Part shown: piece by piece, positions 3,533 to 64,000 of the stretch | How the letters are laid out: each line of letters starts with the position of its first letter | Position numbering within the stretch: position 1 is the stretch's first letter | Origin: Dictyostelium discoideum | Taxonomy: Eukaryota | Assembly (NCBI GenBank): GCA_000004695.1 | Contig: CM000152.2 | Location: forward strand, 5,504,001-5,568,000 | Reading direction: 5' to 3' | Length of the DNA: 64,000 nucleotides | Notes under the pieces: model-generated | Databases searched by the model: none | What the model was told of the DNA's origin: nothing | The model's input: only the letters and a program-made list of their open reading frames with translations | Program-made: the position numbers and the translations under genes

Positions 3533-5512
<1,980 letters not shown>

Positions 5513-5669
5513 AAAAAGTTTGGAATAATAGTCAATAAATATTATTTTTAATAATAATAATAATAATAAATATTAAAATAAAATAAAAATAAAATAAAAA
5601 GCAATTGTTTAAATATATATATATACATAAAATTTATTTTTATATTTGAATTTTAAAAAAAAAAATTTC

Positions 5670-6768
5670 TTAAGAATTTGGTGGTGGTTGTTGTTGTTGT
5701 TGTTGTTGATTAATTGGTGAAGATCTTTTTAAATTTAAAGGATTAAAAGAATAATCAATTACAGATTCTTCAATGATTTGTTTAACTTGAAAAGAAATTG
5801 GTTGATCAGAGATTGTTGAGAATAAAGATACTGGTAAATATTTGCCATAAGAGTCATAAAATTTTAAACGATTTTGAATCTCTTGATTATAGTTATGTTT
5901 TAATTCTTCATTGAATTGTTCAGCAATTGTTTTTTGACGTAAATATTCTTTTTGTCTTCTTTTAACCTCTTCTAATAGATTATCATAGGATTCATCGAAT
6001 AGATCATACCATTTACCAAGACTATATAATTCACCAATGAAATAATTTGCACCAGCCAATCGTTGTTCGAATATACAATTAAATCTTTCAAATGTTTCCC
6101 AATTCTCTGAGAAATCATTACCAAAACTTAACTTTTCATTCAATAAATAAACTAATGTATAAATACTACAACTCTCTTTAAATTGATTTTCAATATCTTT
6201 TACATTCTTTGACATTAATTGTATATTCTCTAATGAACTTGTTAAAAGTAATTGAATTTGTTCTTTTTTATTATTAATATTAAAATCATGTTGTTGTTGT
6301 GGTGATGATGGTGATGGTGAAGAAGATGAAGAAGATGACGATGGTGATGGTGATGGTGATAATGGTGATGGAGACGGTTTATAAAAAGTTATAAAATCAC
6401 ATTGTGAAGCTACATTAATTAATTGATTTTGAATTGTTTTATATAAATTATTTTGTTGTGTTAATAAATCAGAGAGTGAATTACTTTCTTCAATTTGTTT
6501 ATTATATTGTTTTTGAATCTCTAAGAATCTATTCTCCATCTCTAAATTTGATTCATTGGTTGATTTATATATTTGTTTTGATTTATCACAAATTTCATTT
6601 AATCCTGATAATTCTGATAAAAATTGATTCTTTATTAATTCTAAACTTTCAATATCAATAAAATCATATAATGTATTTAAATTATTATTGTTATTATTAT
6701 TATTATTTTTATTTACATCATTATTATTATTATTTTCATTATTATCATCTTCAGTACTTTTATTACTA

Positions 6769-6824
<56 letters not shown>

Positions 6825-7227
6825 TTTAAAAACTAAACCTTTATCTAAATATTTCTTTTTTAAAATTTCTAATTTATTTTCTATTGACGTAAATAATGAT
6901 TGTTTTTGATTCGATAACGATGTAAAATCATTTATAAATGTATTATATCTATCATTAAATTGTGTTGATGTTTCTTTTAATATCTAAAATTTTTTAAAAA
7001 AAAAAGTAAATAAATATAAGAATTTGATAATACCACAAATACAAACTAATAATTTATAATTAAATAATAGTTACAATTAATTGTTTATTTAATTCTCTAA
7101 TGATTAAATGTAATTTTGATAAAGAATTATCATATTTTTCATAGGTTTGTTTTGATATCTTTAATAATTGATCAGTTTGGTTAGAATGGCTTTTACACAA
7201 TTCTAATGATTTACTTGAAAAATCCAT
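5670..7227 (-). CDS. Hypothetical coiled-coil protein with poly-N and Ser/Pro-rich tracts, 2 exons: complement(join(5670..6983,7075..7227))
   Basis: Exon 1 reads MDFSSKSLELCKSHSNQTDQLLKISKQTYEKYDNSLSKLHLIIRELNKQLI (51 codons) and ends at a GTAACT donor. An AT-rich 91-nt intron ends at a ttttag acceptor. Exon 2 is 1311 nt in frame through the track ORF 5670..6539. No homolog recognised. Coiled-coil heptad character is visible in the sequence. Confidence 0.5.
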
Positions 7228-7593
7228 ATATATATCTATATATATATATAGATATATATATTTAATAAGTTGAAATTAAAATTTAAATTATTTATATATA
7301 TATATATATAATTTTATTTTTTTATTTTTTATTTTTTATTTTTTATTTCTTCACACAATTGTTAAATTAATTAAAAAAAAATAAAAAAAATTTTTTTAAA
7401 AAAAAAAAACACCTTTTTCATTTTTTTTTTTTTTTATTTATTTTTTTTTTTTTATTTGTATATTTTTATTTTTATTTTTGTCTCGATACCATATTTGGAA
7501 TTTTTATTTTTGATAATTTAAAAATAGTTTTGATGAGAAATCTTTATTTTATTATTATTTTTATTTTTAATATTTTTTAATATTTTTAATATT

Positions 7594-9272
7594 TTAACTT
7601 TGAATTGTTGTTAAAAAAAAAGTTGGAACTGTTGCACGGAATGAATAATCTCTATTATTTAATTTAACCATTGTAAAATAACCTCCCATATGACCCTGAG
7701 AACGTTCAATCTCACACCTACTACAATATTCACTAAATTTATTTATTTATTAATTAATTAGTATATTTTTTAATAATAAAAGAGAGAGAGAAAATATTAT
7801 TATTATTATTTTATTATTTATTTAATTTTATACATACAAAGTTACACCAGGTTTTATAATTGGAAATTTACCAATTACACCAGGACCATTTACATTTGAA
7901 GAACCATCAATTGTTGATATTATCCAAAAACGATGAGTTAATTGACAAGCATTTTTTGGATCTTCATCTTTATCCATTGAGATAGTTACTCTATAAAAGA
8001 AGGTATAAGAATTTTCATCCTCTGGTATATAAACTGCACTACATTTTATTTTAACACCTTGAGTTACAACCTCATCACCATTGTAAGGTGAAAACTCTGG
8101 ATATCTATAGAGTATTTTCCTTCTAGTTGTGAATACACCTTTCTCTAATGCAAAAGCATGTAAATATAAAAATTCCCAAAAACTATTTGCAACAATCATT
8201 GGACTACCCGGAGCAATTAATAAGATTTGGTCCTTTTTAAAACTCTTTTCTTCAATTTTAAAATCCCGCAATGCCATTATATAATATCTTCTAGAGGCAG
8301 AACATGCTACAAATAAAACATGTTGAAATGATTGCATATTTCTAGTCTTTTTATATAACGATATCGTCTTTTCAAGTGATAATAAAAATATATTTGTTTT
8401 TGATTCATATGCTTCAACTGTACCTAATAAACCATATCTTGTAAATTCTTTTTGTCCATTATGAATTAACATTGAACATAAATAATCAGCTGGTAATTTT
8501 ATATTATTATCATTATTAACAACATTATTTGAACTATTATTTGAACTATTATTTACAAATTTAATAGTTGAAATTAATTTATATAATTTAGTATGAGAAA
8601 TCGAATGAAAAGATTTTTTCATTGAATCCATTGAATTTAAATCCATCCAATTTTCAAATCTATCCCAAATGTATCTCATTGTTTTATAATGATGAATTAT
8701 ATTTGAATTAAATCTTTGATGTAATAATTTATTTACAATAATTGGTGTTAATTTTTCTTTTTCTATTATTTCATTTTGTTCTCTTTCTAAATCTAAATGT
8801 TCATTTTTATTTTTATTTTGACTTTTATATGATTTTCTTAATTCTTTTAAATAATTTGCTTCTTCATTAATATCATCGTCATCGTCATCATTATCTTCAT
8901 CTTCATCATCTTCATCATACTCTTCATCATACTCTTCATCATACTCTTCTTTTTCATCTTCATTTTCTTCATCTTTATTATCCTCCTCCTCCTCATTATT
9001 AGTATTAACATTATTTTCTACTTCTTCATTATTAATATTTAATTTATATTTGATAATTGCATTATCAGTTGATAATAAGAAATCTTTTTGAATAATATCA
9101 TTCCAAATCATATTTGAAATTGAAGAATTTGAAATGATTTGGTTAAAATATAAATTAACTTGAGATAATTCTAAAAGTGATTTTGTATGTAAATTTTGTA
9201 ATATAATTAATAAATTTTCAAATGGTATATTTAAAATGTAACATGGTTGTTGTTGTTGATTATCTTCATCTT

Positions 9273-9833: not shown

Positions 9834-11875
9834 ATGAACAGTGAAAATATAATTAAAGTTATTAAAGGAAAAAAAGTTGTAATAAATGGTGAAATAAAAC
9901 CAGCATCAATTTTAATTAAGTAAGTTTTTAATTAATAAAATAATAAATAATAAATAATAAATAATAAATAATTTTAAAATTAAAAATTAATTTATATTTT
10001 TTTTTATAAAGAAATGGTATTATTATTGATATTAAAGATTATTCAAGTGAAATTAAAGAAGAACATGAGGTTTTAATTGAAGAAGAGAAATTAGTTATTA
10101 TGGGTGGATTAGTTGATAGTCATGTTCATATTAATGAACCAGGTAGAACAGAATGGGAAGGATTTTTAAGTGCAACAAGTGCAGCAGCATCAGGTGGTGT
10201 AACAACCATTATTGATATGCCATTGAATAGTTCACCAGTTACAACAACATTTGAAAATTTACAAACTAAAATTGAATCGATGCCAGGTAAATTAAGAGTT
10301 GATGTTGGTTTATTGGGTGGTATTATACCGGGTAATTCATCAGAGATCTCTAGAATGGTATTAGAAGGTGGTGTAGTTGGTTTTAAATCATTTTTAGTTC
10401 ATTCTGGTATTGATGAATTCCCACATGTGAAAGAGGATGATATTCAAGAAGCAATGAATGTAATGAAAAAATTAAAAGATGAGCAAGGTGGAAGGGATGT
10501 AGTTATGATGTTTCATGCAGAGATTGAGGAACCAATTAAAGAGGCCACTGAGAGATTACAACGTGAGAATGCAGATCCAAAATTATACGACACCTTCCTC
10601 AAAAGTAGACCAAGAGTTAGTGAGAATATAGCAATTGATAAGGTTATTGAGTTAACTAAAAAGAATATGATAAAAACTCATATCGTTCATTTATCATCCA
10701 GTGATGCAATTGAAGCCATTCACGAGGCGGTTCATAATGATGGTGTGCCAATTACTGCAGAGACAACCTACCATTATCTATACTTTGAATCTGAGCAAGT
10801 CCCATACGGTAACACACTCTATAAATGCTGTCCACCAGTACGTGAAAGTGAAAATAAAGATTTACTTTGGAAAGCTGTGACCAATGGTACCATAAACATC
10901 ATCGTTAGCGACCACTCACCATGTACATTAGATTTGAAATTAATTGAACAAGGTGATTTCATGAAAGCATGGGGTGGCATTAGTTCGCTACAATTAGGCT
11001 TACCAATCATTTGGACAGAGGCTAGCAAAAGGGGTGTGCCATTAGCCAAACTCTCAGAATACATGTCTGACGCACCATCACGTCTAGTTGGCTTAAACGA
11101 TCGTAAAGGGTCAATTAAAATTGGCAGAGATGCAGATTTCGTTATATGGGATCCTGAAGAATCGTTTACAGTCGACCAAGGTCTATTAATGGTAAAAAAT
11201 AAAAATTCACCATACCACGGTGAAAAACTTTTAGGTGTAGTTCACCACACGATTTTACGTGGTAATAAAATATTTTCAAAAGGTGATCAAACAATTTCAA
11301 AAATTATTGGTAAACGTTTAATTCAAACTAAAATTCACACAAATCCAATTTACCCATCACCAACATTACCAACCATAGAGTTATTAAATAGTTTAACTGA
11401 GCAAAAAACATTCTTTGATTGTATTCATTTACTATTTGAAGCTGCACCACCTTTAGCAAATGCATTATTTTCAAAACGTCCATTCTCATCATATCAACAA
11501 TTAATCGATCAAGCTTATTCAATCATTCAATCATTAAATGAATCTGATAAAATTCAAGTTATCAATGCTCATCCAAGAATTGGTGTATCTGCATCACAAG
11601 TTAAAAATTCATCATCAATTAGTTACCGTGAACAATCTTGTGATAAAGATTCCTCGATTGATCAATCAATTCTTGAAAATTTAACACAATTAAATCAACA
11701 ATATGAATCAAAATTTGGTTTTAAATTTGTTGTATTTGTAAATGGTCGTCCAAAGAATGAAATCATTCCAATTTTACAAAATCGTTTAAATAATAATGAT
11801 AAACAAAAAGAATTAAATTTAGGTTTATCTGAAATGATTGAAATTTCAAAATCAAGATTATTAAAATTATTATAA
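9834..11875 (+). CDS. Bifunctional allantoinase (N-terminal, about 450 aa) fused in frame to OHCU decarboxylase (C-terminal, about 150 aa), 2 exons: join(9834..9919,10012..11875)
   Basis: Exon 1 reads [28 protein letters not shown] and ends at a GTAAGT donor at 9920 (phase 2). Exon 2 reads '[13 protein letters not shown]...[21 protein letters not shown]...[13 protein letters not shown]...', which is the allantoinase/dihydroorotase-type amidohydrolase. A single 591-codon ORF then continues into '...[14 protein letters not shown]...[29 protein letters not shown]...'. The HP-R-G and KFGFPF-ICARG-like motifs there mark OHCU decarboxylase. Confidence 0.85.
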
Positions 11876-14228: not shown

Positions 14229-14299
14229 GGGAGATTAGTTAAGTGGTATAATGCTACCTTTGGGTGGTAGCGTCCTGAGTTCGATTCTCGGATCTCCCC
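14229..14299 (+). tRNA. tRNA-Pro (anticodon UGG)
   Basis: Sequence: GGGAGATTAGTTAAGTGGTATAATGCTACCTTTGGGTGGTAGCGTCCTGAGTTCGATTCTCGGATCTCCCC. It folds as a cloverleaf: 7-bp acceptor stem, D-arm, anticodon stem CTACC/GGTAG around loop TTTGGGT (anticodon TGG), 4-nt variable loop, T-arm CTGAG-TTCGATT-CTCGG. The anticodon loop is identical to the eukaryotic tRNA-Pro(UGG) loop. Confidence 0.85.
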
Positions 14300-14343: not shown

Positions 14344-15054
14344 AAAAAATGTGAAACCATCATCAAAAATTCAACAAGATAAATCATCAAACCAATATTT
14401 AATATTCTTTCTTATTAATAATTGGAGATGATATTGATATCCAATTTAATATCAATAATTTAATCAATTTACAAATTATTTATATCAATAGTCAAAAACT
14501 CTGGCTCATTTGGTTTTATTAATAATGGTAAATAACTTTATCTCTGATTTAAAGATAATTAATTAAATCTAATTTAAATTAATTTTACCACAATTAAATC
14601 TGATTTAAATTAATTTTACCACAATTAAATTCAATCTCTTAAGTAGTTTCAATTGATTGAAATATTATTAAAACTATACCTTTGAATTGGGTTTTTATTT
14701 ATTCATTTATTTATTTATCTATTAATTTATTTATTGATAATAAATAGAAAAAAATAAAAGGATAATAATAATAACTGCTTGAATCAAGTTTGATCTTTGG
14801 CTAACGTTTAATGAAGATGAAAACAAAATGATTTATTTTCTACTGAAATGATGTTTTGGGTGGATTAAAAAAAAAAGAAAATAATATTAAAAAAAAAAAA
14901 AAAAAGAAAAATATTTAAAATTTTTGCTAATAAAAAATAATTTTTTTTATTTATTTGCATTATGGTTTCTCGTAATATAAAAAAACAAAAAAAATTGAAT
15001 AATCCATTCAAGAATCGAACATATGATCTCCATATTGTTTTAAATAAATAAGTG

Positions 15055-15125
15055 GGGAGATCCGAGAATCGAACTCAGGACGCTACCACCCAAAGGTAGC
15101 ATTATACCACTTAACTAATCTCCCA
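15055..15125 (-). tRNA. tRNA-Pro (anticodon UGG), second copy, convergent with the first
   Basis: The plus strand is the exact reverse complement of the 14229-14299 tRNA ('GGGGAGATCCGAGAATCGAACTCAGGACGCTACCACCCAAAGGTAGCATTATACCACTTAACTAATCTCCC'). The flanks are also inverted copies. An ex-B-like box lies at 15009-15027 ('CAAGAATCGAACATATGAT'). Confidence 0.85.
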
Positions 15126-16193: not shown

Positions 16194-18013
16194 TTAAAAA
16201 AAATAAAAAAAAAAAAAACAATTATTGGAAAGGTATTTCAATTTTATTTTGCTATTATTTTGAGACGGTAAAAAGGGATTTTTAAGAAATTTTTTTTTTG
16301 AATATTTAATTACAGTTGATAACTTTGTGGATCCTAATATAATAGATCCTGATTCTTTGGTGACATTCCATTCATTAATGTCGATTTGAGGGTTAATTTC
16401 ATTTAATAATTTTGATTTTATGTCAACAATCATTGCTAATGATAAAGTGTTTGAATCAATTTGTTTTGATTTTGTAGAAGAAGGAGAAGAAGAAGAAAAT
16501 TGACTTTAAATTAATAAATTATTATTATTAATTAATAAATTTGAGAAATCTTTTGATTTACTAATTAAATCTATTTCATTTTTTACTTAATTGAAAAGCT
16601 CTTGTTAATAATCTAAGATATTGAATTTCTTTTGAGATATCTTTAAAAATTTCGTTTTCTTTATAGTTTTTAATGATGAAAGTGTCACGTTCATTGAATG
16701 ATAAATGATTTCCACTATTTCTAATTATTTCTTTAACTTTTCTATTTGAAAAAGCATCAGTAAAAGTTATACATAATAATGGTGTAATACCTAATGAAAG
16801 TACTTCTTTTATTTTATTATCAATAAATTGAATTCTTGGAAAAGCTAAGAAATCACGAATTGATACAATGAAAATGAAACAATTGATACTATAACGTTGA
16901 TCTGGTGGTAAGATAATACAATCATTGAATTTGGTACCATGGTGTATCTTGCCATCAGCCTTCATTTTTAATATAACATCAGTAACACCCAAACCCCAAA
17001 AAATCAGAACAAGAAACATTAATATTATTAAATGATTTTTGAATTGGGGAAAGGTTATCTTTTGATGATAATAAATCTTTAAGTGAAATATTATTTATGC
17101 TCGTTGTTATTTTAGTACTCCTAGACCTATTTACCATAAAATAATCCTCTAATTGGTTGTCTGGATTGAAAAGATTAACAAGACCATTCAACAAAGAACT
17201 TATACGATTCACCAAAATCTAAATCTCTTTTCAATTGAATAGTGAAACTTGAGTAATATTTATTTGATAAGAATTTAACTATTGTACCTGATGGTATTGA
17301 AAATTGACCATCTGGTTTTATTATAACATCTAATAATAAATCATCATAAATTAATTTAGTTTCATTTGAATTTGGATAAACCTCAATATTGAATGGAAAA
17401 TTCAAATATGGATCTTTACTACCACCATTAATCAATAATTTTATATCTTGATTAAAATTCTTTTCCAATTGAATTATTTTTTGATCTGGTAAAATTGATT
17501 GTAAATTATTAATAACAACAATATTTAGATTTGTGATTAAACTACAATTACATGCCAATCCATAGATTTCAACATTATCCAAGCTTAAATTGTCTAAAAA
17601 ACCATTAACTGAATCATCTGTCGATTTACCTGAACTAAAAATTAAAATCTTTGAATTAAAATCACTTGGTTCCCAACTTGATTCTAATATACCTTCAAAA
17701 CACAATTCCATTGCTTCACCCAATTTCGCTTCATTATTTGTTTTTGAAAATTTTATATCTTTTAAACCTTCTTTAATTTTTTCTTGTTCTGATTCAAACT
17801 CTAAAATTGTTTCAACACTCTCACCATATGTTATAATTTACAATCAATATTGAATTTTTCAAGTTGAGTAATGAAATACTTGATAATTACATTAAAAATT
17901 GACATCTGTGATGATGTTTCAATTAAAATTGAAAAATAATTAATTTTATTATTATTAATTTTAATCTCTGTTTTGAGGGTATTTCTATTTTTTTTTTCAT
18001 TTCCACCTTTCAT
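16194..18013 (-). pseudogene. Degenerate, frame-disrupted vWA-domain gene, paralogous to the intact vWA gene immediately upstream at 18317..20513
   Basis: Four consecutive ORF pieces on the minus strand, each in a different frame: 18013-17831, 17830-17175, 17215-16979 and 17019-16576. The frame switches at 17215-17175 and 17019-16979 lie in overlapping stretches containing homopolymer runs. At 17831 the first frame ends at a TAA, leaving only a 24-nt GT..AG candidate between the pieces. No AT-rich intron sequence separates the pieces. The pieces align in order to the neighbouring gene. 'YFSILIETSSQM' matches 'FVIFCIDISGSM', but the MIDAS DxSxS has been lost. '...EAKLGEAMELC...ILIFSSGKSTDDS' matches '...STALGSAVAAC...IIICTDGQSNMG'. 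'VEIYGLACN' matches 'ISVLTIKGTD'. A possible spliced tail exists at 16505..16194. Confidence 0.4.
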
Positions 18014-18316
18014 TATTTTGTTTTTTTTATGATTTTATAAAAATAAATAAAAAAAAAAAAACAATTTATATTCATTAAAAAAAAAAAAAAAAAAAAATAT
18101 GAAAGGAAAAGTGTTTTTTCCAAATATGGTAATATTAATATTAAAATGGGTAAAAGATTTTATTCATTTTAATGTATTTTATTTAATATTCCTTTTTTAT
18201 TAAAAAATAAAAAAATAAAATAAAATAAGTCTAATTTTATATTTTTAAATTTATTAATTTTGAAGCTATTAATTTTTATTATACAATTTAATTTTGGTTT
18301 TTTTTTTTTTTTTAGT

Positions 18317-20217
18317 TTAAATGAATTTTTTCTTTGATTTTGTACTATTCATATTTGACATATTATAAAGCATATTAGCAGTTGCATCATCACGATTTTG
18401 TTGACGTGATTTTAATCTATCACCACTTGAATTATAACTCTTTTCATTTGAAACAGTATTTGATAGTTGAGTTTCAATATCTTGAGCTTGTTGCATATAA
18501 TTTGACATTGAATCGATTTCATCTGAATCGACTTTAGTAGCCTTTTGTTTCTTCATCATTACCTTTTGCATAAGTCCAGCATGTGAATAATTTTTAGCAC
18601 GAGATTTTTCATAATCACCTGATGAAGCAATCTTTGTAGAGGTTTGAACCATATTAATACCCAATGCCTCGATGTTTGCATGTTCTTCAGCCAAATCAGA
18701 GCTTGTTGTAATCTCTTGAGTTTGAGTGATCATTCTTACACATTTCTTACCAGTGAGTGTTGTATAAAAGATTTGTAATTGGAATGGTATTGATTTCAAA
18801 GATTTATCAATTAATTTAGAGGATCTAACACCATATTCAAATGAAATTGTTGTGTCTTGATTTACATTACCAATCACTCTTTCAACAAAACTCTTTTCAG
18901 TATTATTATTATTATCAAAGTCACTAACGTAAAGACCTTTATGGAGGAATATCTTAACGGATACATTTGTTGCTAAAGTAGGTAAACTAAGAATTTCTTT
19001 GAAACCATCATTTAAATTGATTGGATCCATAATGTTAACTTCACCACCGGTATTATTTGCCAATTTACCAATCACTTCAAGTTTAGTATCGGTACCTTTA
19101 ATGGTGAGTACACTAATGGAAGTACCACTTCTTTGAGCCATATTTGCAATTTGTTCAAATACCATTTGTTGTTTTTCTGGTGCTTCAGTTGCACCTAAAC
19201 CCATATTTGATTGACCATCGGTACAAATGATAATTTGTGAACCTCTTGAACCACCGGTAATACCAACACAAGCTGCAACTGCAGAACCTAAGGCAGTGCT
19301 ACCACTACCTCTTAATGTTTTAACCTTTTCCAATAATGAATTCTTTGTTTTTGAAACTGGATTATTCATTTGTAATAAACCACCTTCTTCAACCAATTGA
19401 GAGAGGTCTAATAATTTAGCTTTATCACTGATTGTAACTGGTTCAGTTGAGCCATCACCAAACATTGTAACCTTATCACTAAATGTTACGATACCAACAC
19501 GTTTATTTGGATACTTTTCAGCGATACTTTCAATTTGATGTAATAAACCAATTTGAACACATTGTAAACGTGAAACATAACTAACCTTTGTAAGAGCAGC
19601 TAGTTTTTCAGGAATTTCATTATCGTAAATACCTGAATTTGATACTAATGAACTTGGAATTGATAAACCATTTACAGATTGTGTAACTTCCATACTACCA
19701 CTAATATCAATACAAAAGATTACAAATGAATCATCTTTTTCATTCTTTTCTTTTTCATCTTTTTCTTTTTCTTCTTTAGTTTTATTGTTGTTGTTGTTAT
19801 TGTTGTTATCACCAACTGGTTCAGATTCTAAAATATAATCAATTATATTTGTTTGTGGTATTTCTTCTTTATCAATGACAATTTCATTCTCTTCATAACA
19901 AAATTCACATTTCCAAGTTTTATTTCCATCGAAACCACCATCAGTTGGAATATTTGGATGCTTTTTACCATCATTTAATGTTATCTCTTTTAATGCATTG
20001 ATATTGCTGAAACCACAATTACATTTTTTACAAAAGTAACCATCACCAGTTTGAATAGATGATTCCTTTGCAACTGTACCTAAATTGACTACTAATACAT
20101 TGGTTGTTGCTTTCTTTATTTTAGCTTTAAGTTGATTTGGTGCACGATTATTCATTGGTGCTGGTGGTGGTGCTTGTGGTGCTGCTGATCTACCAAAAAT
20201 ACTAAAGAATCCTCTTG

Positions 20218-20283
<66 letters not shown>

Positions 20284-20513
20284 GAGGTTGTTGAGGTTGT
20301 TGAGGTTGTTGAGGTTGTTGAGGTTGAGCACCTTGAAAGAAAATATTGCTATCTATTTTTTTAAAAAAAAAAAAAAAAAAAAACAAATGATAAAAATTTA
20401 ATTAATATTTTGAAATAAAAAATAATAATAATAATAATAGTAATAAACTTACCAACAACAAATTCTTCCTCTTCATCATCTTGAACAAAAGTATATTTTG
20501 AACCACAATTCAT
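18317..20513 (-). CDS. von Willebrand factor A (vWA) domain protein with an N-terminal poly-Q/PQ tract and a C4 zinc-ribbon, 2 exons: complement(join(18317..20352,20453..20513))
   Basis: Exon 1 reads MNCGSKYTFVQDDEEEEFVV and ends at a GTAAGT donor (phase 1). The acceptor is aaaaaaatag. Exon 2 starts DSNIFFQGAQPQQPQQ...Q26. It then carries CxxC pairs ('FCKKCNC...WKCEFC'). It then carries a vWA domain with an intact MIDAS motif ('FVIFCIDISGSMEV', 'GSTALGSAVAAC', 'IIICTDGQSNMGLG', 'ISVLTIKGTDTKLEVIGKLANNTGG'). A beta-rich and then a helical C-terminal region follow. The zinc-ribbon to vWA-trunk to beta-barrel to helical order resembles Sec23/24. This resemblance is inference only. Confidence 0.7.
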
Positions 20514-21042: not shown

Positions 21043-22594
21043 ATGGTAGCTCAAAGACATTATTATCCAAATTTAAATGATTTACCAAAAGAAATATTAG
21101 TAATTATATTCACACATGTTTTCAATTTATTAAAAAAAGATAAATGTAGAAATCTTAATTCAAAATTTTTTCAAAATGTTTTCATCAGTAAATCAATTGG
21201 TAATTCACTTTTAAATAGTACAGAGTTTTGGATAATATTGATATCTTCTTATATATTTAAAGATATTCTTATTTTTACATCAAATAAATTGGATAGAAAT
21301 GTTTATAATTTAGTTTATTATTGTGCGAGTCAATGTAAAATTAGAGATTATTTTAATAGAAATATTAAAGGTCAAAGACTTCAAACTGTATGTATATGAA
21401 TATAAATAATGAAAAAAAAATAAAATAAAATAAAATAAAATAAAATTTTAATTATATAATAATTATATATAGAAAATTCAAAGTAGTAAATATATGAATT
21501 TAAAAACAGCAGTTTGTTCAATACCATTTGAGAGTAGTTTTATAGTTGGTGGATTGGGTACTAATAAATATCCATTTTTAAGAGCATTCAATTATAAAGG
21601 TGAAGAACAAATCAATTATTTACAAATGAATAGAGTTGGTGCTTATGAAAATAAACCAATTGAATCAATTTCATGTAGGAATAAAGTATTGGCATTTAGT
21701 GTGTTGGGTAGTGATATTATATCAATTTGTAAGACCAATGACTTGAATGAAGATAAATGTGGTTATTTACAATATGAGACTATTAGAACCTCATGCACAG
21801 GTGAAAGAAGTAGGGTAAAGTTAAGTCCGGCCGACGAGAATAAATTAGCTATTGGTGGTAGTGATGGGTCGGTGCATATCTATGATTTGAATCGTATACT
21901 TTCAAACACTGATGACGATGACCAATACGAAGGCAATGAATACATTACAGTCATATCGGAGTGGGGTTTCATGAATAACAAGCTACCAGTTTGGGACTCT
22001 TGTTTCACAAATGATGGTAGAGGTTTATTCGTAGTGGGCGAGTCAGTTCTCAATTGTAGCGATTACTATAAGAATACCGGTTTCGTTAGATACTGGGACA
22101 CCAGACAAGATCCGAATAAAATGGTATGGCAATTAAGGGAAGGTATTGAAGTTGGTGGTATCTCACAATCCCAAGATTCAAATTGTATAGCCTACGTAAT
22201 GAGAGGTGGTTTGGTTAGAGTATTCGATCTACGTTCTCCAAATAATCCACTGGCATTATTCACACCAGAGTCTTCATTAAACTATAACTTTACTTTAAAA
22301 TCTCCATTCAATAGAGACGCTATAGCTTGGATACCCGGTGGATGTGATAATATAGTCTCCTCTTTTTACAATGAAATCAATGTATGGTCAATGGCTGAAG
22401 GTGAAGATACTTGTACCATCATGGTTGATAAATATAGAACCCAAGATAATAATCATAATCAATTAGATATAACTGATGATGGTTTATTACTTTGTTCCAA
22501 TGATACAATTTATTCTCTAAATGATATCAGTGATAAATCAATCATTGATTATTTAGATAATCAAAAAAAAGAAAAAGAAATTGAAAGTGATTAA
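21043..22594 (+). CDS. F-box/WD40-repeat protein, 2 exons: join(21043..21387,21473..22594)
   Basis: Exon 1 reads 'MVAQRHYYPNLNDLPKEILVIIFTHVFNLL...' (F-box-like LPxEIL..IF) and ends at a GTATGT donor at 21388, phase 0. The acceptor is tatatag at 21472. Exon 2 carries WD-repeat-like units: 'IGGSDGSVHIYDL', 'VRYWDTR', 'GGLVRVFDLRS', 'NEINVWSM'. Confidence 0.6.
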
Positions 22595-46967: not shown

Positions 46968-49004
<2,037 letters not shown>

Positions 49005-61584: not shown

Positions 61585-64000
61585 ATGGTAAAATTGTTTG
61601 GAAAATCGAAGAAAAAGGAGGAATCTCCTCAATCCATTGATATTGCATTCCAAAGTATTTTGGTAAGTTTTTAAAATAATTTTCTTTTTTTATTTTTATT
61701 AGTTTTATTTAACTTACAAATAACATATTTATTTAAAATTATTATTATTTTTTTTTTATTAGGATGAAATTGGTGTTGTTGAAACAGAAAAAAAACATTT
61801 AATGGCAACAATGTAATATATAATTTTTTTTTTTTTTTTCTATTTTTTTTTTTTTTTTTTTTTTTTTTCTAATATTTTTTATTTTTAATTTTTTTTTTTT
61901 CAATTTTAATTATAACAAATATAGGGATACAGTTAGAAAACAACAATTAATTCAATCATATTCAAGTAAAAAATTTTCAAAGAATGAATTTGGGAATAAA
62001 TCAAAAAAGAAATCAATTATAACTCAATCACCACATTACTTTGTAGATTGTTTAAAAAATGACCCATCTAAAGAAGTATTGACATCATTACGTGTTCGTT
62101 TGGGTAATCAACCACTAAAATGGTTGAAAGAATTTTTATCATTAGATGGTGTATCATTATTAATTAAAGTTTTAATTTTAAATGAAATTAAACAAGTGTA
62201 TGTATTTTTAAATAATTTATTTATTATTAAAAAATTAAAAAATTATTACTATTTATTAATAAATTTATTTGAAAAAAAAAAAAAAAAGTAAAAATCAAGA
62301 AGATATTTATAAAATTGCACAATGTTTACATTCATTAAAATTAATAATGAATACAAAATTTGGATTAGAATCAGTTATAAAACAACCAACTAATATACAT
62401 TCAATTTCATTGGTTATGGATACACCACATTTGAAGACTAGAATCATGGTTATAGAATTATTGGCAGCATTATGTGTTGTAAATTCCAAAGGTTTACCAT
62501 TGGTATTGAGTGCAATGGATAACTATAGAGAAGTAAAGAGAGAGAAGAAACCATTCATTCATCTTTTTCAAGGTTTAAAGAATCCTTCTGGTTCATTACA
62601 AGCTACTACATTTGCATTGATTAATACATTGATTAGTAGTAGTCAAAGTGTTGAAGAGAGACAAAAGATTAGAAATCAATTTAAAAAGTTGGGTATTACA
62701 AAGGTGATTGAGGAATTGGAGCCAGAATATGCAAATAATCCAGATTTGGCAACACAAAAAGATCTATACGAACAGGAATGTAGATGGGATGAACAAGAAC
62801 AAATTGAAAATGCACGTGGTGATATCTCTGATGAAAACCCTGAAGCATTGGTAAAGGCAATCCTTGATAGAACTGCTGGTGGTCCATTGTATTCTTCATT
62901 CACTTCAATCTTAAGATTATTGGCAAATTCAATCACTGATCAAACAAAGGATCAGTCATTGTCAAACTATTTATTCGTAGAGAAGGTCATTGGTAAAATG
63001 AATAATGGTGAATCTTATCTCGATGATATTGGTACATTTTTTGGTGGAGGTGGTGGTGGTGATGGTAGTTTAGATATCGCTCATGTATCTGGAGAGAAAG
63101 CAGTACTCATTCAAAAGGAGATTGAAGATTTAAAGAAACAAAAAAAGAGAGATCAAGATAAATTGGCAGAGAAAGATAAACTCTTAACTAAATTGGCAAA
63201 GAGAATGAGAAAGATGGAAGAGGCAATTAAATTAGGTAAAGGTTTAGAATATTTAAATAATCAAATTGAAATTGAATCACCACCCGATTCATCTACAAGT
63301 ACACCACAAGAAACAACACCTGGTGGCACCAAAGTACCTTTGAAAACTTCACCAGTTACAAAGGCTGATCTTAAACATAAACTTTCAACATTTACAACTG
63401 CTAAAGCTCCAAATGGTGTAAGTGATTTCCTTAGCGGTCTTGATACCACTAATCAACAAGGAAGTACGGATGCATCTCAAACTGAAGCTGGTAGTGGCGA
63501 CGGTATACCTTTACCACCGGGAGCACCTCCCCCACCTCCACCACCAGGTGGTAAATTAGCACCATCAACACCACAACTATGTTCACGTCCACCATCAATT
63601 AAAATGAAATCATATCAATGGACACGTTATCGTACTAGAAACGTTACCAATACATTCTGGAAGAATGTTAATCTCACAAAGTATAATGACTGTTTACCAC
63701 ATGAACAAATTGAAGGTTTATTTGGTGCAGCCATATTTGAAAAGAAAGAAAAGGAATTGAAAAAAGGATCAGAGGTAACTGTTATTGATACAAAGAGAGC
63801 TCAAAACATTGGTATTCTCTTATCAAGATTTAAAAATGTTACTCATGATGCAATCTATGATGCAATCTATAGTTTGGATGAGTCAATATTGGATCTTGAA
63901 ACCATTAATCAATTCATAAAGTATATTCCATCAAAGGAAGAAATTGATTGTATCATTGCATTTAAACAACAACAAGAACAACTACCAGAGGAAGAGAGAA
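61585..64000 (+). CDS. Diaphanous-related formin, 5' portion (GBD/FH3, FH1, start of FH2). The gene continues beyond the window. Exons: join(61585..61662,61763..61812,61925..62197,62289..>64000)
   Basis: Small 5' exons: 'MVKLFGKSKKKEESPQSIDIAFQSIL', then 'DEIGVVETEKKHLMAT', then 'M|RDTVRK...LRVRLGNQPLKWLKEFLSLDGVSLLIKVLILNEIKQ'. Donors are GTAAGT, GTAATA and GTATGT. Phases are consistent with the track ORF at 62079. The long exon 4 carries armadillo-like FH3 sequence, a coiled coil and the FH1 proline run 'IPLPPGAPPPPPPPGG'. It then carries FH2 'MKSYQWTRYRTRNVTNTFWKNV...IEGLFG...' and runs off the window. Confidence 0.8.

Follow-up and report, generated by a model that had tools for sequence, protein, structure and literature searches.

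A probable in-place pseudogene of a vWA-GTPase gene beside a separate vWA gene in Dictyostelium discoideum

We find that a locus previously read as a decaying vWA paralog is very probably a non-processed pseudogene, the in-place remains of a single-exon gene of ~712 codons for a vWA-GTPase protein, and that its upstream neighbour is unrelated to it. Both loci lie on the minus strand, between positions 16194 and 20513 of the window, the 64,000-nucleotide stretch of Dictyostelium discoideum DNA analysed here, whose base composition (~22% GC) is Dictyostelium-like. An initial annotation had correctly placed two same-strand vWA neighbours here and took the downstream one for a decaying tandem duplicate of the other. 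The decay stands, as indels relative to an intact ortholog; the duplication does not, as the two loci belong to different vWA lineages. Because the downstream locus is no decayed copy of its neighbour, its loss looks like ordinary gene death. Several signs point to a pseudogene: family homology, lesions relative to a syntenic ortholog, lesions that cannot be spliced out and relaxed constraint. The coordinates of both loci are collected in Table 1.

Table 1. Features of the two vWA-containing loci, in window coordinates; ortholog codons are those of P0001
Feature	Position	Strand	Description	Basis or remark
Upstream vWA gene	20513-18317	-	Intact
Upstream exon 1	20453..20513	-	MNCGSKYTFVQDDEEEEFVV plus first base of next codon	Read from sequence
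Upstream intron	20353..20452	-	Sole intron, 100 nt, GTAAGT...AATAG, 93% A+T
Upstream exon 2	18317..20352	-		Pfam and homologs
Upstream Zn ribbon	20032-20021; 19909-19898	-	CKKC; CEFC
Upstream MIDAS	19708-19691; 19303-19286; 19222-19205	-	DISGSM; GSTALG; TDGQSN
Downstream locus	18013-~16194	-	Very probable non-processed pseudogene
Segment 1	17841..18013	-	Ortholog codons 1-58, vWA N-terminus	Start ATG at 18013
ETSSQM	17920-17903	-	In segment 1, where DxSxS would sit
Lesion 1	17835..17840	-	7-nt deletion (AAAATTC/AAATTCA), frameshift, ortholog codon 59	L001 and L002 keep the 7 nt
Segment 2	17202..17834	-	Ortholog codons 62-279, rest of vWA and first half of beta-sandwich	tblastn
Lesion 2	17202/17201	-	224-nt deletion junction, frameshift, ortholog codons 279-353	DNA alignment
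Segment 3	17004..17201	-	Ortholog codons 354-421, SSLLNGLVNLFNP via switch I (TKITTSINN) to G3 motif
Lesion 3	16998..17003	-	+1 T in T6 run inside G3 motif (ortholog SDSWG), frameshift	DNA alignment
Segment 4	16586..16997	-	Ortholog codons 421-558, G-domain remainder and long C-terminal helix	tblastn
Lesion 4	16586/16585	-	5-nt deletion (TAAAC), frameshift, ortholog codon 558	DNA alignment
Lesion 5	16506..16508	-	In-frame TAA, ortholog codon 590	AAT in L001, AAA in L002
Lesion 6	16426..16427	-	In-frame 96-nt deletion junction, ortholog codons 622-653	DNA alignment
Segment 5 and degenerate 3' end	16194..16425	-	Ubiquitin-like remnant IKSKLLNEINPQIDINEWNVTKESG...

Lesions relative to a syntenic ortholog

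The conceptual translation of the downstream locus matches a family of Dictyostelium proteins 700-770 aa long, with P0001 as the best match (phmmer, E 1e-253). In lineage L001, the P0001 gene is one uninterrupted, single-exon ORF of 712 codons. It is flanked on one side by the same WD40-like gene and vWA gene as in the window, and on the other by a gene of 244 aa that aligns to the window's Rab. When this ortholog is compared with the window by tblastn, the match is split into five pieces, collinear and in frames -1/-3/-1/-2/-3, and its E values (6e-111, 1e-85 and 2e-19) are far beyond chance. The identity to P0001 is 88% in segment 2, which also holds in-frame indels of +3, -15 and -3 nt, and 85% in segment 4, which includes a G4-like ITFTD (16770-16756).

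Lesions were placed by aligning the DNA of the window to that of L001 and L002. Relative to P0001, the locus has four frameshifts (-7, -224, +1 and -5 nt), one TAA, the 96-nt deletion and a scrambled 3' end, and its stop codon is lost. Read from the ATG, the frame stays open for 60 codons and then meets a TAA (17836-17834). The 7-nt deletion lies between AAATT direct repeats, with its precise breakpoint ambiguous within those bases, and the 5-nt deletion lies between TAAA direct repeats; the extra T in the T6 run is the sole homopolymer slip among the frame switches. Segment 5 carries insertions of 27 and 6 nt, which are accompanied by loss of the ancestral stop from the frame, so that the reading continues into the poly-T that lies upstream of the Rab gene.

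The initial annotation had proposed at least three switches of frame, around homopolymer runs. The pieces do lie in different frames, but there are four switches, of which only the T6 one involves a homopolymer. What was taken for a run at 17195-17205 is the junction of the 224-nt deletion, and the switch near 17835, attributed to a run at 17825-17835, is the 7-nt deletion. The inventory was also incomplete, as it missed the 5-nt deletion, the TAA, the two large deletions and the degenerate 3' end.

Mapped onto an AlphaFold model of the ortholog, the 224-nt deletion takes out the P-loop GDVGSGK together with three strands of the beta-sandwich and the G domain's first strand, and the 96-nt deletion takes out the first two strands of the ubiquitin-like domain at the C-terminus. 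In the window's lineage, the ancestral gene has been destroyed by small, slippage-type indels (-7, +1 and -5 nt), a nonsense change and two larger deletions, of 224 and 96 nt. A frame-corrected product would still be without its P-loop and half of its ubiquitin-like domain, and we infer that the pseudogene gives rise to no functional product.

Splicing, constraint and the fate of the locus in other lineages

We used the intron of the upstream gene as an internal standard for a real intron in this DNA. GTAAGT donors occur nowhere in the pseudogene locus. GT..AG pairs that would mechanically restore the frame do exist at each junction; their A+T content is 64-81%, where the intron of the upstream gene has 93%, and splicing any of them would remove at least 41 nt that are colinear with the single-exon ortholog. 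Judged by composition and collinearity, no credible intron restores the downstream frame. The earlier view that the switches are indels and not introns is upheld, in that the ortholog is single-exon and collinear and every switch falls at an indel relative to it, as is the observation that the switches have neither a GTAAGT donor nor AT-rich intron sequence. The accompanying warning of mis-annotation was also apt: in sister genomes, the broken orthologs have been modelled as split genes or given invented introns (P0005 with P0012, and P0011). The appropriate annotation for the locus is a pseudogene and not a multi-exon gene, and the split or spliced models that sister assemblies carry are artefactual.

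The downstream locus is under relaxed constraint. Its dN/dS is 0.53 between the window and L001 and 0.60 between L001 and L002, against 0.19 and 0.05 for the upstream gene in the matching pairs and 0.01-0.12 for a functional paralog of the downstream locus in the same strains. Counting synonymous against nonsynonymous changes specific to the window gives 8:19 for the pseudogene and 19:7 for its neighbour (Fisher p=0.002). As the dN/dS of the pseudogene is well below 1, some of the divergence arose while the gene was still constrained, and the time of its death is only roughly bounded. P0001 shows a nonsynonymous excess on its own branch (6 S : 14 N); this 'intact' ortholog may itself be on its way out and, if so, is a weaker standard of function.

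From the aligned sequences, the same locus has been broken independently in two further lineages and is missing from a fourth. L002 carries four frameshifts of its own and a stop, in L003 there are frameshifts together with a deletion of 388 nt, and in L004 the gene is wholly absent at the locus. One lesion in L002, a +1 A at ortholog codon 421, coincides in position with the window's +1 T. We rejected shared ancestry of the two as unlikely: the inserted base is T in one and A in the other, the site is a T/G run, and L002 groups with the intact L001 as its sister (dS 0.025-0.048) and is far from the window (dS ~0.12). In situ pseudogenes left by birth-and-death turnover of lineage-specific gene families are alike in having a syntenic intact ortholog, collinearity at the DNA level, multiple frameshifts, nonsense changes, deletions and a raised dN/dS, and in being independently disabled or lost at the same locus in sister lineages. 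The present case is the same in kind, and is notable for having one lineage with an uninterrupted ORF and three that are broken or empty.

Could the gene nevertheless be functional, with its frame switches arising from mistakes in sequencing or assembly, or from short introns of an unconventional kind? A T inserted into a T6 run is a classic error site, the mechanical GT..AG pairs are available at each junction, and gene predictors have applied such devices in sister genomes. However, deletions of 7, 5, 224 and 96 nt and a TAA are not homopolymer errors. The G1 P-loop (GxxxxGK[ST]), which is invariant in the ortholog and 36 homologs (G347, G352, K353), went with the 224-nt deletion and cannot be recovered by splicing; the ortholog is intronless, and the candidate introns are coding-like in composition. 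The relaxed constraint described above comes from substitutions, which do not depend on the indels, and two other assemblies have orthologs whose breaks fall at different sites. We consider a functional gene very unlikely. For programmed recoding (by frameshifting or RNA editing), or for a truncated or regulatory product such as a vWA-only fragment, a short peptide or a non-coding RNA, there is nothing positive, save that conservation with the intact ortholog extends to the promoter-proximal region and the ATG and that several motifs are still recognisable. The four shifts differ in sign and size, are accompanied by a stop and large deletions, and bear no recoding signature; the first stop leaves the vWA fold incomplete; and the lesions differ by lineage, which argues against any conserved recoding site. 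We give these last possibilities almost no credence.

The upstream gene and its relation to the pseudogene

The neighbour of the pseudogene encodes an intact protein of 698 aa. It opens with an ATG at 20513, and exon 1 runs up to a GTAAGT donor at 20452; its orthologs in L001-L004 have models of 693-710 aa with one intron. The MIDAS motif and C4 zinc ribbon that had been ascribed to this gene are both there, as DISGSM, GSTALG and TDGQSN and as a CxxC...CxxC pair. The four cysteines (C124, C127, C165 and C168) and the MIDAS residues (D-S-S, T, D) are invariant in 22 homologs, consistent with the gene retaining a working MIDAS site. With a dN/dS of 0.19-0.25 between lineages, the gene is under purifying selection.

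In a Pfam search, the upstream protein matched VWA_2 above cut-off and Sec23_BS and zf-Sec23_Sec24 weakly, with no match to a Ras-family domain and none to the Sec23 helical or gelsolin domains. Its homologs (n=63) carry PF04810/PF04811/PF08033/PF13519, and several bear the name 'circularly permutated Ras protein 1'(-like). Proteins with a zinc finger and a Sec23/Sec24-trunk-like VWA domain but without cpRAS have been described as related to the C-terminal half of cpRas1 (Elias and Novotny, 2008; PMC2430557). The upstream gene has four cysteine codons 5' of the VWA/Sec23-trunk, cpRas1 homology and no cpRAS domain. It shares with that family the four invariant cysteines before the VWA/Sec23-trunk and the lack of a Ras-type domain, and we found no difference from the published description. 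The family is found in dictyostelids, ciliates and some metazoans. Its sequence identifies the upstream gene as a member of this cpRAS-less family of zinc finger, Sec23-trunk-like vWA and Sec23 beta-sandwich. Compared with Sec23/Sec24 proper, it retains a complete MIDAS and has no Sec23 helical or gelsolin match.

If the downstream locus were a decaying tandem duplicate of this gene, having lost its MIDAS in the course of decay, the two should resemble each other beyond their vWA domains. The loci are indeed adjacent on the same strand, each opens with a vWA fold and continues into a beta-rich domain, and hhalign of the two family profiles aligns their vWA cores (E 0.0076). That alignment, however, has 5% probability over 87 aligned columns, and these ~90 columns are confined to the vWA core, while BLASTP between the two proteins found no similarity (best E 5.6). 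The shared order of vWA trunk, beta-rich region and C-terminal region also fails as a sign of kinship, because the architectures differ: the upstream family combines zf-Sec23_Sec24, Sec23_trunk/VWA_2 and Sec23_BS without a GTPase, and the downstream family a PF00092 vWA, a beta-sandwich, a septin-like GTPase and a ubiquitin-like domain. The genuine paralogs of the downstream locus sit elsewhere in the genome, adjoining a SET/MYND gene. As had been noted, ETSSQM stands in place of DxSxS, but it should not be taken as decay. ETSS.M is invariant in 9/9 intact members of the subfamily, which evolve at dN/dS 0.01-0.12, and is an old subfamily trait rather than a symptom of this copy's decay. We consider a tandem duplicate extremely unlikely. 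The two loci represent different vWA lineages, a zinc-finger-bearing one of the Sec23-trunk type and one of the PF00092 integrin/ANTXR type fused to a GTPase, and their adjacency is coincidental.

The parent family of the pseudogene

An AlphaFold model of the ortholog built with nine close homologs only was unusable (pLDDT 41.6) and was superseded by one from a 36-sequence alignment (pLDDT 82.4), in which a GTPase fold is seen. The ancestor of the pseudogene would have been a cytosolic protein composed of an N-terminal vWA domain with a non-canonical ETSS.M site, a beta-sandwich, a septin-like TRAFAC GTPase and, at the C-terminus, a ubiquitin-like domain. Inspection of the family sequences by eye, with no predictor, revealed no signal-like hydrophobic stretch at the N-terminus. 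The Rossmann-like vWA fold is present in the downstream family, and the window has ETSSQM and SSG in place of a functional MIDAS (DxSxS...T...D). In the intact subfamily members, SSG likewise replaces TDG, and distant members of the family retain DxSxS/TDG. Relative to classical vWA/integrin I-domain proteins (PF00092: ANTXR, collagen VI and integrin alpha I-domains), the group-4 Dictyostelium subfamily is thus distinguished by ETSS.M for DxSxS and SSG for TDG, and the vWA of the parent family by its fusion to a GTPase.

A deep profile of the family (A3) matched septin-3 and septin-9 in the PDB over ~180 residues (E 1e-7 to 5e-7), whereas the same search with a shallow profile (A1) returned only low-complexity noise. 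Pfam Septin matched weakly in 8/36 members (best 2.6e-5), below cut-off in all, and no Pfam GTPase family reached its cut-off. Septins and septin-like TRAFAC GTPases (the septin, GIMAP/AIG1 and Toc class) are the closest known relatives of the G domain, and share with it the canonical order of G1 (GxxGxGKS), G2 (Thr) and G3 (DxWG); the G2 and G3 residues T385, D419 and G422 are invariant across the family. The canonical G4 of GTPases is NKxD, and that of the parent family is [TN]FxD. Unlike septins, the window copy has its P-loop deleted; it keeps TKITTS and SDF(+1)WG, in which G3 is split by the +1 T. A cpRAS domain was considered for this GTPase and rejected, because the motifs run G1-G2-G3-G4 and not G3-G4-G5-G1-G2. 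We know of no septin or GIMAP with an N-terminal vWA and beta-sandwich and a C-terminal ubiquitin-like domain. The ancestral protein may have assembled in a nucleotide-dependent manner through its G domain and bound other proteins through its vWA and ubiquitin-like domains.

The pseudogene itself is ordinary, and points to an uncharacterised family combining vWA, septin-like GTPase and ubiquitin-like domains. Literature searches turned up no specific description of a vWA-GTPase family or pseudogene in Dictyostelium; the one relevant paper was that on cpRAS, which bears on the upstream gene. The family has so far been seen mainly in Amoebozoa. A wider reading, which we regard as tentative and rather doubtful, is that the parent family is an undescribed, mainly amoebozoan class of cytosolic GTPases with rapid birth-and-death turnover, in which ETSS.M marks a derived, metal-independent ligand-binding surface. 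The states of the locus across five close lineages (intact, three times independently pseudogenised, or absent) would resemble, by analogy, the turnover of conflict-driven, immunity-type GTPases such as IRG and GIMAP, and if that reading is true, the window's pseudogene is one snapshot of the process. Some paralogs are strongly conserved (dN/dS about 0.01-0.12) whereas this locus has been repeatedly lost, a contrast that makes the conserved paralogs reasonable targets for knockout in Dictyostelium.

Lesions of the downstream locus

The downstream locus (18013-~16194, minus strand) encodes recognisable protein in stop-free stretches of all three frames. Joined together, these pieces match a Dictyostelium family of 700-770 aa proteins, the best match being P0001, a 712-aa protein from GCA_054859385.1, an assembly labelled D. 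discoideum. P0001 is encoded by a single, uninterrupted exon, and the gene order in its region (L001) is a WD40-like gene, a 708-aa ortholog of the upstream gene, P0001, and a 244-aa gene that aligns to the window's Rab. As these flanking genes correspond to those of the window, P0001 is the syntenic ortholog of the downstream locus. The flanking DNA of the two regions is ~92% identical and the synonymous divergence (dS) of the upstream gene to the nearest genomes is ~0.12; thus, the genomes compared here are separate lineages of a D. discoideum complex. The nearest genomes are labelled D. discoideum or D. cf. discoideum, yet they show ~8% DNA difference and dS of ~0.12, and so isolates called D. 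discoideum look like several species-level lineages.

We read the lesions by aligning the window's DNA to L001 and to L002, the syntenic region of a second assembly (Table). The open reading frame beginning at the ATG at 18013 is closed after 60 codons. The initial annotation had described at least three frame switches around homopolymers, which is only partly right: the switches number four, of which a single one arose by homopolymer slippage. The 224-nt deletion costs the pseudogene three strands of the beta-sandwich, the first strand of the G domain and the P-loop, and the 96-nt deletion takes away the ubiquitin-like domain's first two strands.

Features of the two vWA loci, their neighbours and the intact ortholog (codons numbered as in P0001)
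Feature	Position	Strand	Remark
WD40-like gene	21494-22594	+	upstream of the two vWA loci
Upstream gene, exon 1	61 nt, starts 20513	-	precedes the intron
Upstream gene, sole intron	20452-20353	-	100 nt, GTAAGT...AATAG, 93% A+T
Upstream gene, exon 2	long, ends 18317	-	completes 698-aa protein
7-nt deletion between AAATT repeats	~17840 (codon 59)	-	frameshift
+3, -15, -3 nt indels	inside segment 2	-	in-frame
224-nt deletion	between 17202 and 17201 (codons 279-353)	-	frameshift
+1 T within T6 run	17003-16998 (codon 421, within G3 motif)	-	frameshift
5-nt deletion between TAAA repeats	between 16586 and 16585 (codon 558)	-	frameshift
Repeat-length changes	polyN/polySer linker	-	in-frame
TAA	16508-16506 (codon 590)	-	nonsense
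96-nt deletion	between 16427 and 16426 (codons 622-653)	-	in-frame
27- and 6-nt insertions, 3' end	~16290-16230	-	ancestral stop out of frame
Rab-type small GTPase gene	16118-15409	-	downstream of pseudogene; contains MNSEKPDYNYLFKIVIIGDRKTGKT...
vWA	ortholog residues 15-197		AlphaFold model
Beta-sandwich	ortholog residues 214-321		AlphaFold model
G domain, long helix at its end	ortholog residues 341-575		AlphaFold model
Disordered Ser/Asn linker	between G domain and beta-grasp		AlphaFold model
Ubiquitin-like beta-grasp	ortholog residues 624-709		AlphaFold model

GT..AG pairs that restore the frame are present, by chance, at every junction. The candidate introns are 64-81% A+T, like coding sequence (76%); the true neighbouring intron is 93%. 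The shortest of them (41-126 nt) would each excise nucleotides that align colinearly with the single-exon ortholog, and splicing is unable to restore the 224 nt encoding the P-loop. GTAAGT is absent from the downstream locus and the ortholog is intron-free, supporting the initial preference for indels over introns. Sequencing error was also rejected as the source of the lesions, since such errors do not typically produce large deletions or a nonsense codon.

Relaxed constraint and loss in other lineages

The substitution pattern is evidence for decay that is independent of the lesions. By pairwise Nei-Gojobori estimates, dN/dS at the pseudogene locus is 0.53 (window versus L001) and 0.60 (L001 versus L002). 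By comparison, a functional paralog gives 0.01 between the same two genomes and 0.12 against a third. Of the changes seen only in the window, the pseudogene has 8 synonymous and 19 nonsynonymous, the upstream gene 19 and 7 (Fisher p=0.002). Judged by its lesions relative to the intact ortholog and by this raised dN/dS, the broken frame is real and reading it as a decaying gene was right: the downstream locus is an ordinary pseudogene of the non-processed kind, from a lineage-specific family that is uncharacterised. Even P0001, the sole intact ortholog (L001 6001-8139), carries 6 synonymous and 14 nonsynonymous changes on its own branch (5 and 0 in the upstream gene on the same branch), and may be an open reading frame that is no longer constrained.

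The same locus is damaged differently elsewhere. L002 (GCA_054859355.1) has frameshifts of -1, -1, +1 and +2 nt and a stop, and in annotation its locus (6001-8191) was split into two genes, P0005 and P0012. L003 (GCA_054859205.1) has lost 388 nt of the G domain and carries frameshifts as well, and its locus (4001-5622) was given a 445-aa gene model, P0011, whose introns are invented. These three models are annotation artefacts, split or spliced around the lesions of the same dead ortholog. In L004 (GCA_054859235.1), the pseudogene ortholog and the Rab gene are both missing between conserved flanks. Only one lesion is common to two lineages, the +1 at codon 421 (context GATTCTT|GGGG), where the extra base is T in the window and A in L002 (~7262); it is absent from L001. 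The intact L001 is the sister lineage of L002, and so this insertion looks like a recurrent slippage hotspot and not a shared ancestral lesion. Given the different lesions or absence in each lineage, and the 6:14 ratio on the L001 branch, the locus appears to be dispensable throughout the complex and to be undergoing independent loss in each lineage. This repeated loss of one locus, together with the parent family, is what gives an otherwise low-interest pseudogene its remaining, modest interest.

The parent family and the upstream gene

A full-library profile search with the parent family found 65 clusters. The ten whose source was looked up come from dictyostelids, Pelomyxa and two environmental or unnamed eukaryotic records, and all are unnamed or 'hypothetical'; our literature search for a description of a vWA-GTPase family found no paper. 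An AlphaFold model of the ortholog, built on a 36-cluster alignment, is confident, with a pLDDT of 82.4. The family profile matches septins (septin-3 and septin-9 at ~1e-7), and G1, the G2 threonine and the G3 DxxG are invariant in the family; none of the Pfam GTPase models scores above its cut-off in family members. We infer that the ancestral product was probably a cytosolic, nucleotide-regulated assembly protein.

The initial annotation had taken ETSSQM, in place of the canonical metal site (MIDAS), as a sign of decay. That argument fails, as every one of the nine intact group-4 Dictyostelium subfamily members has ETSS.M, with SSG for TDG, including paralogs under strong purifying selection. 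Distant relatives from other dictyostelid lineages and environmental eukaryotes retain DSSxSI/DTSGSI and TDG. The non-canonical site is thus an old, selected feature of the subfamily.

Nor are the two neighbours tandem paralogs, as had been proposed. BLASTP finds no similarity between their proteins (best E 5.6), and hhalign of a 9-sequence downstream against a 22-sequence upstream profile aligns 87 vWA-core columns only, at 5% probability. By type, the vWA domain of the downstream locus belongs with PF00092 (integrin/ANTXR/collagen VI) and that of the upstream gene with the Sec23 trunk. The pseudogene's true paralogs sit elsewhere, beside a SET/MYND gene.

The motifs reported for the upstream gene (DISGSM, GSTALG, TDGQSN and two CxxC pairs) were all found. 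In Pfam, VWA_2 passes its cut-off, while Sec23_BS and zf-Sec23_Sec24 are weak. Searching the database yielded 63 homologs, spread over dictyostelids, ciliates, metazoans and others, with precomputed PF04810, PF04811, PF08033 and PF13519; several of them bear the name 'circularly permutated Ras protein 1(-like)'. An alignment of 22 homologs shows no variation at the four Cys or at the MIDAS residues. The gene matches a cpRAS-less group resembling the zinc-finger and VWA/Sec23-trunk half of cpRas1 (Elias & Novotny 2008, PMC2430557). With dN/dS of 0.19-0.25 between lineages and 0.05 for the closest pair of genomes, this is an ordinary functional gene.

Neighbours and composition of the window

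Database searches with the proteins of both loci gave close homologs from Dictyostelium only, and the window-encoded proteins have no exact match in a 15-billion-protein collection. The Rab-type protein carries a polyQ tract of ~45 residues directly ahead of its C-terminal CLIQ box; polyQ and polyN tracts are abundant throughout the window. Two tRNA-Pro(UGG) genes, at 14229-14299 (+) and 15054-15124 (-), lie inverted ~750 bp apart. Their flanks of ~130-170 bp are likewise an inverted duplication (BLAST), and the arrangement is kept in the syntenic regions L001-L004. G+C is ~22% overall and 12-35% per kb, with peaks (0.35) at 10001-11000, 48001-49000 and 63001-64000 and 12-30% in the remainder; these peaks presumably mark coding regions that are conserved or highly expressed.
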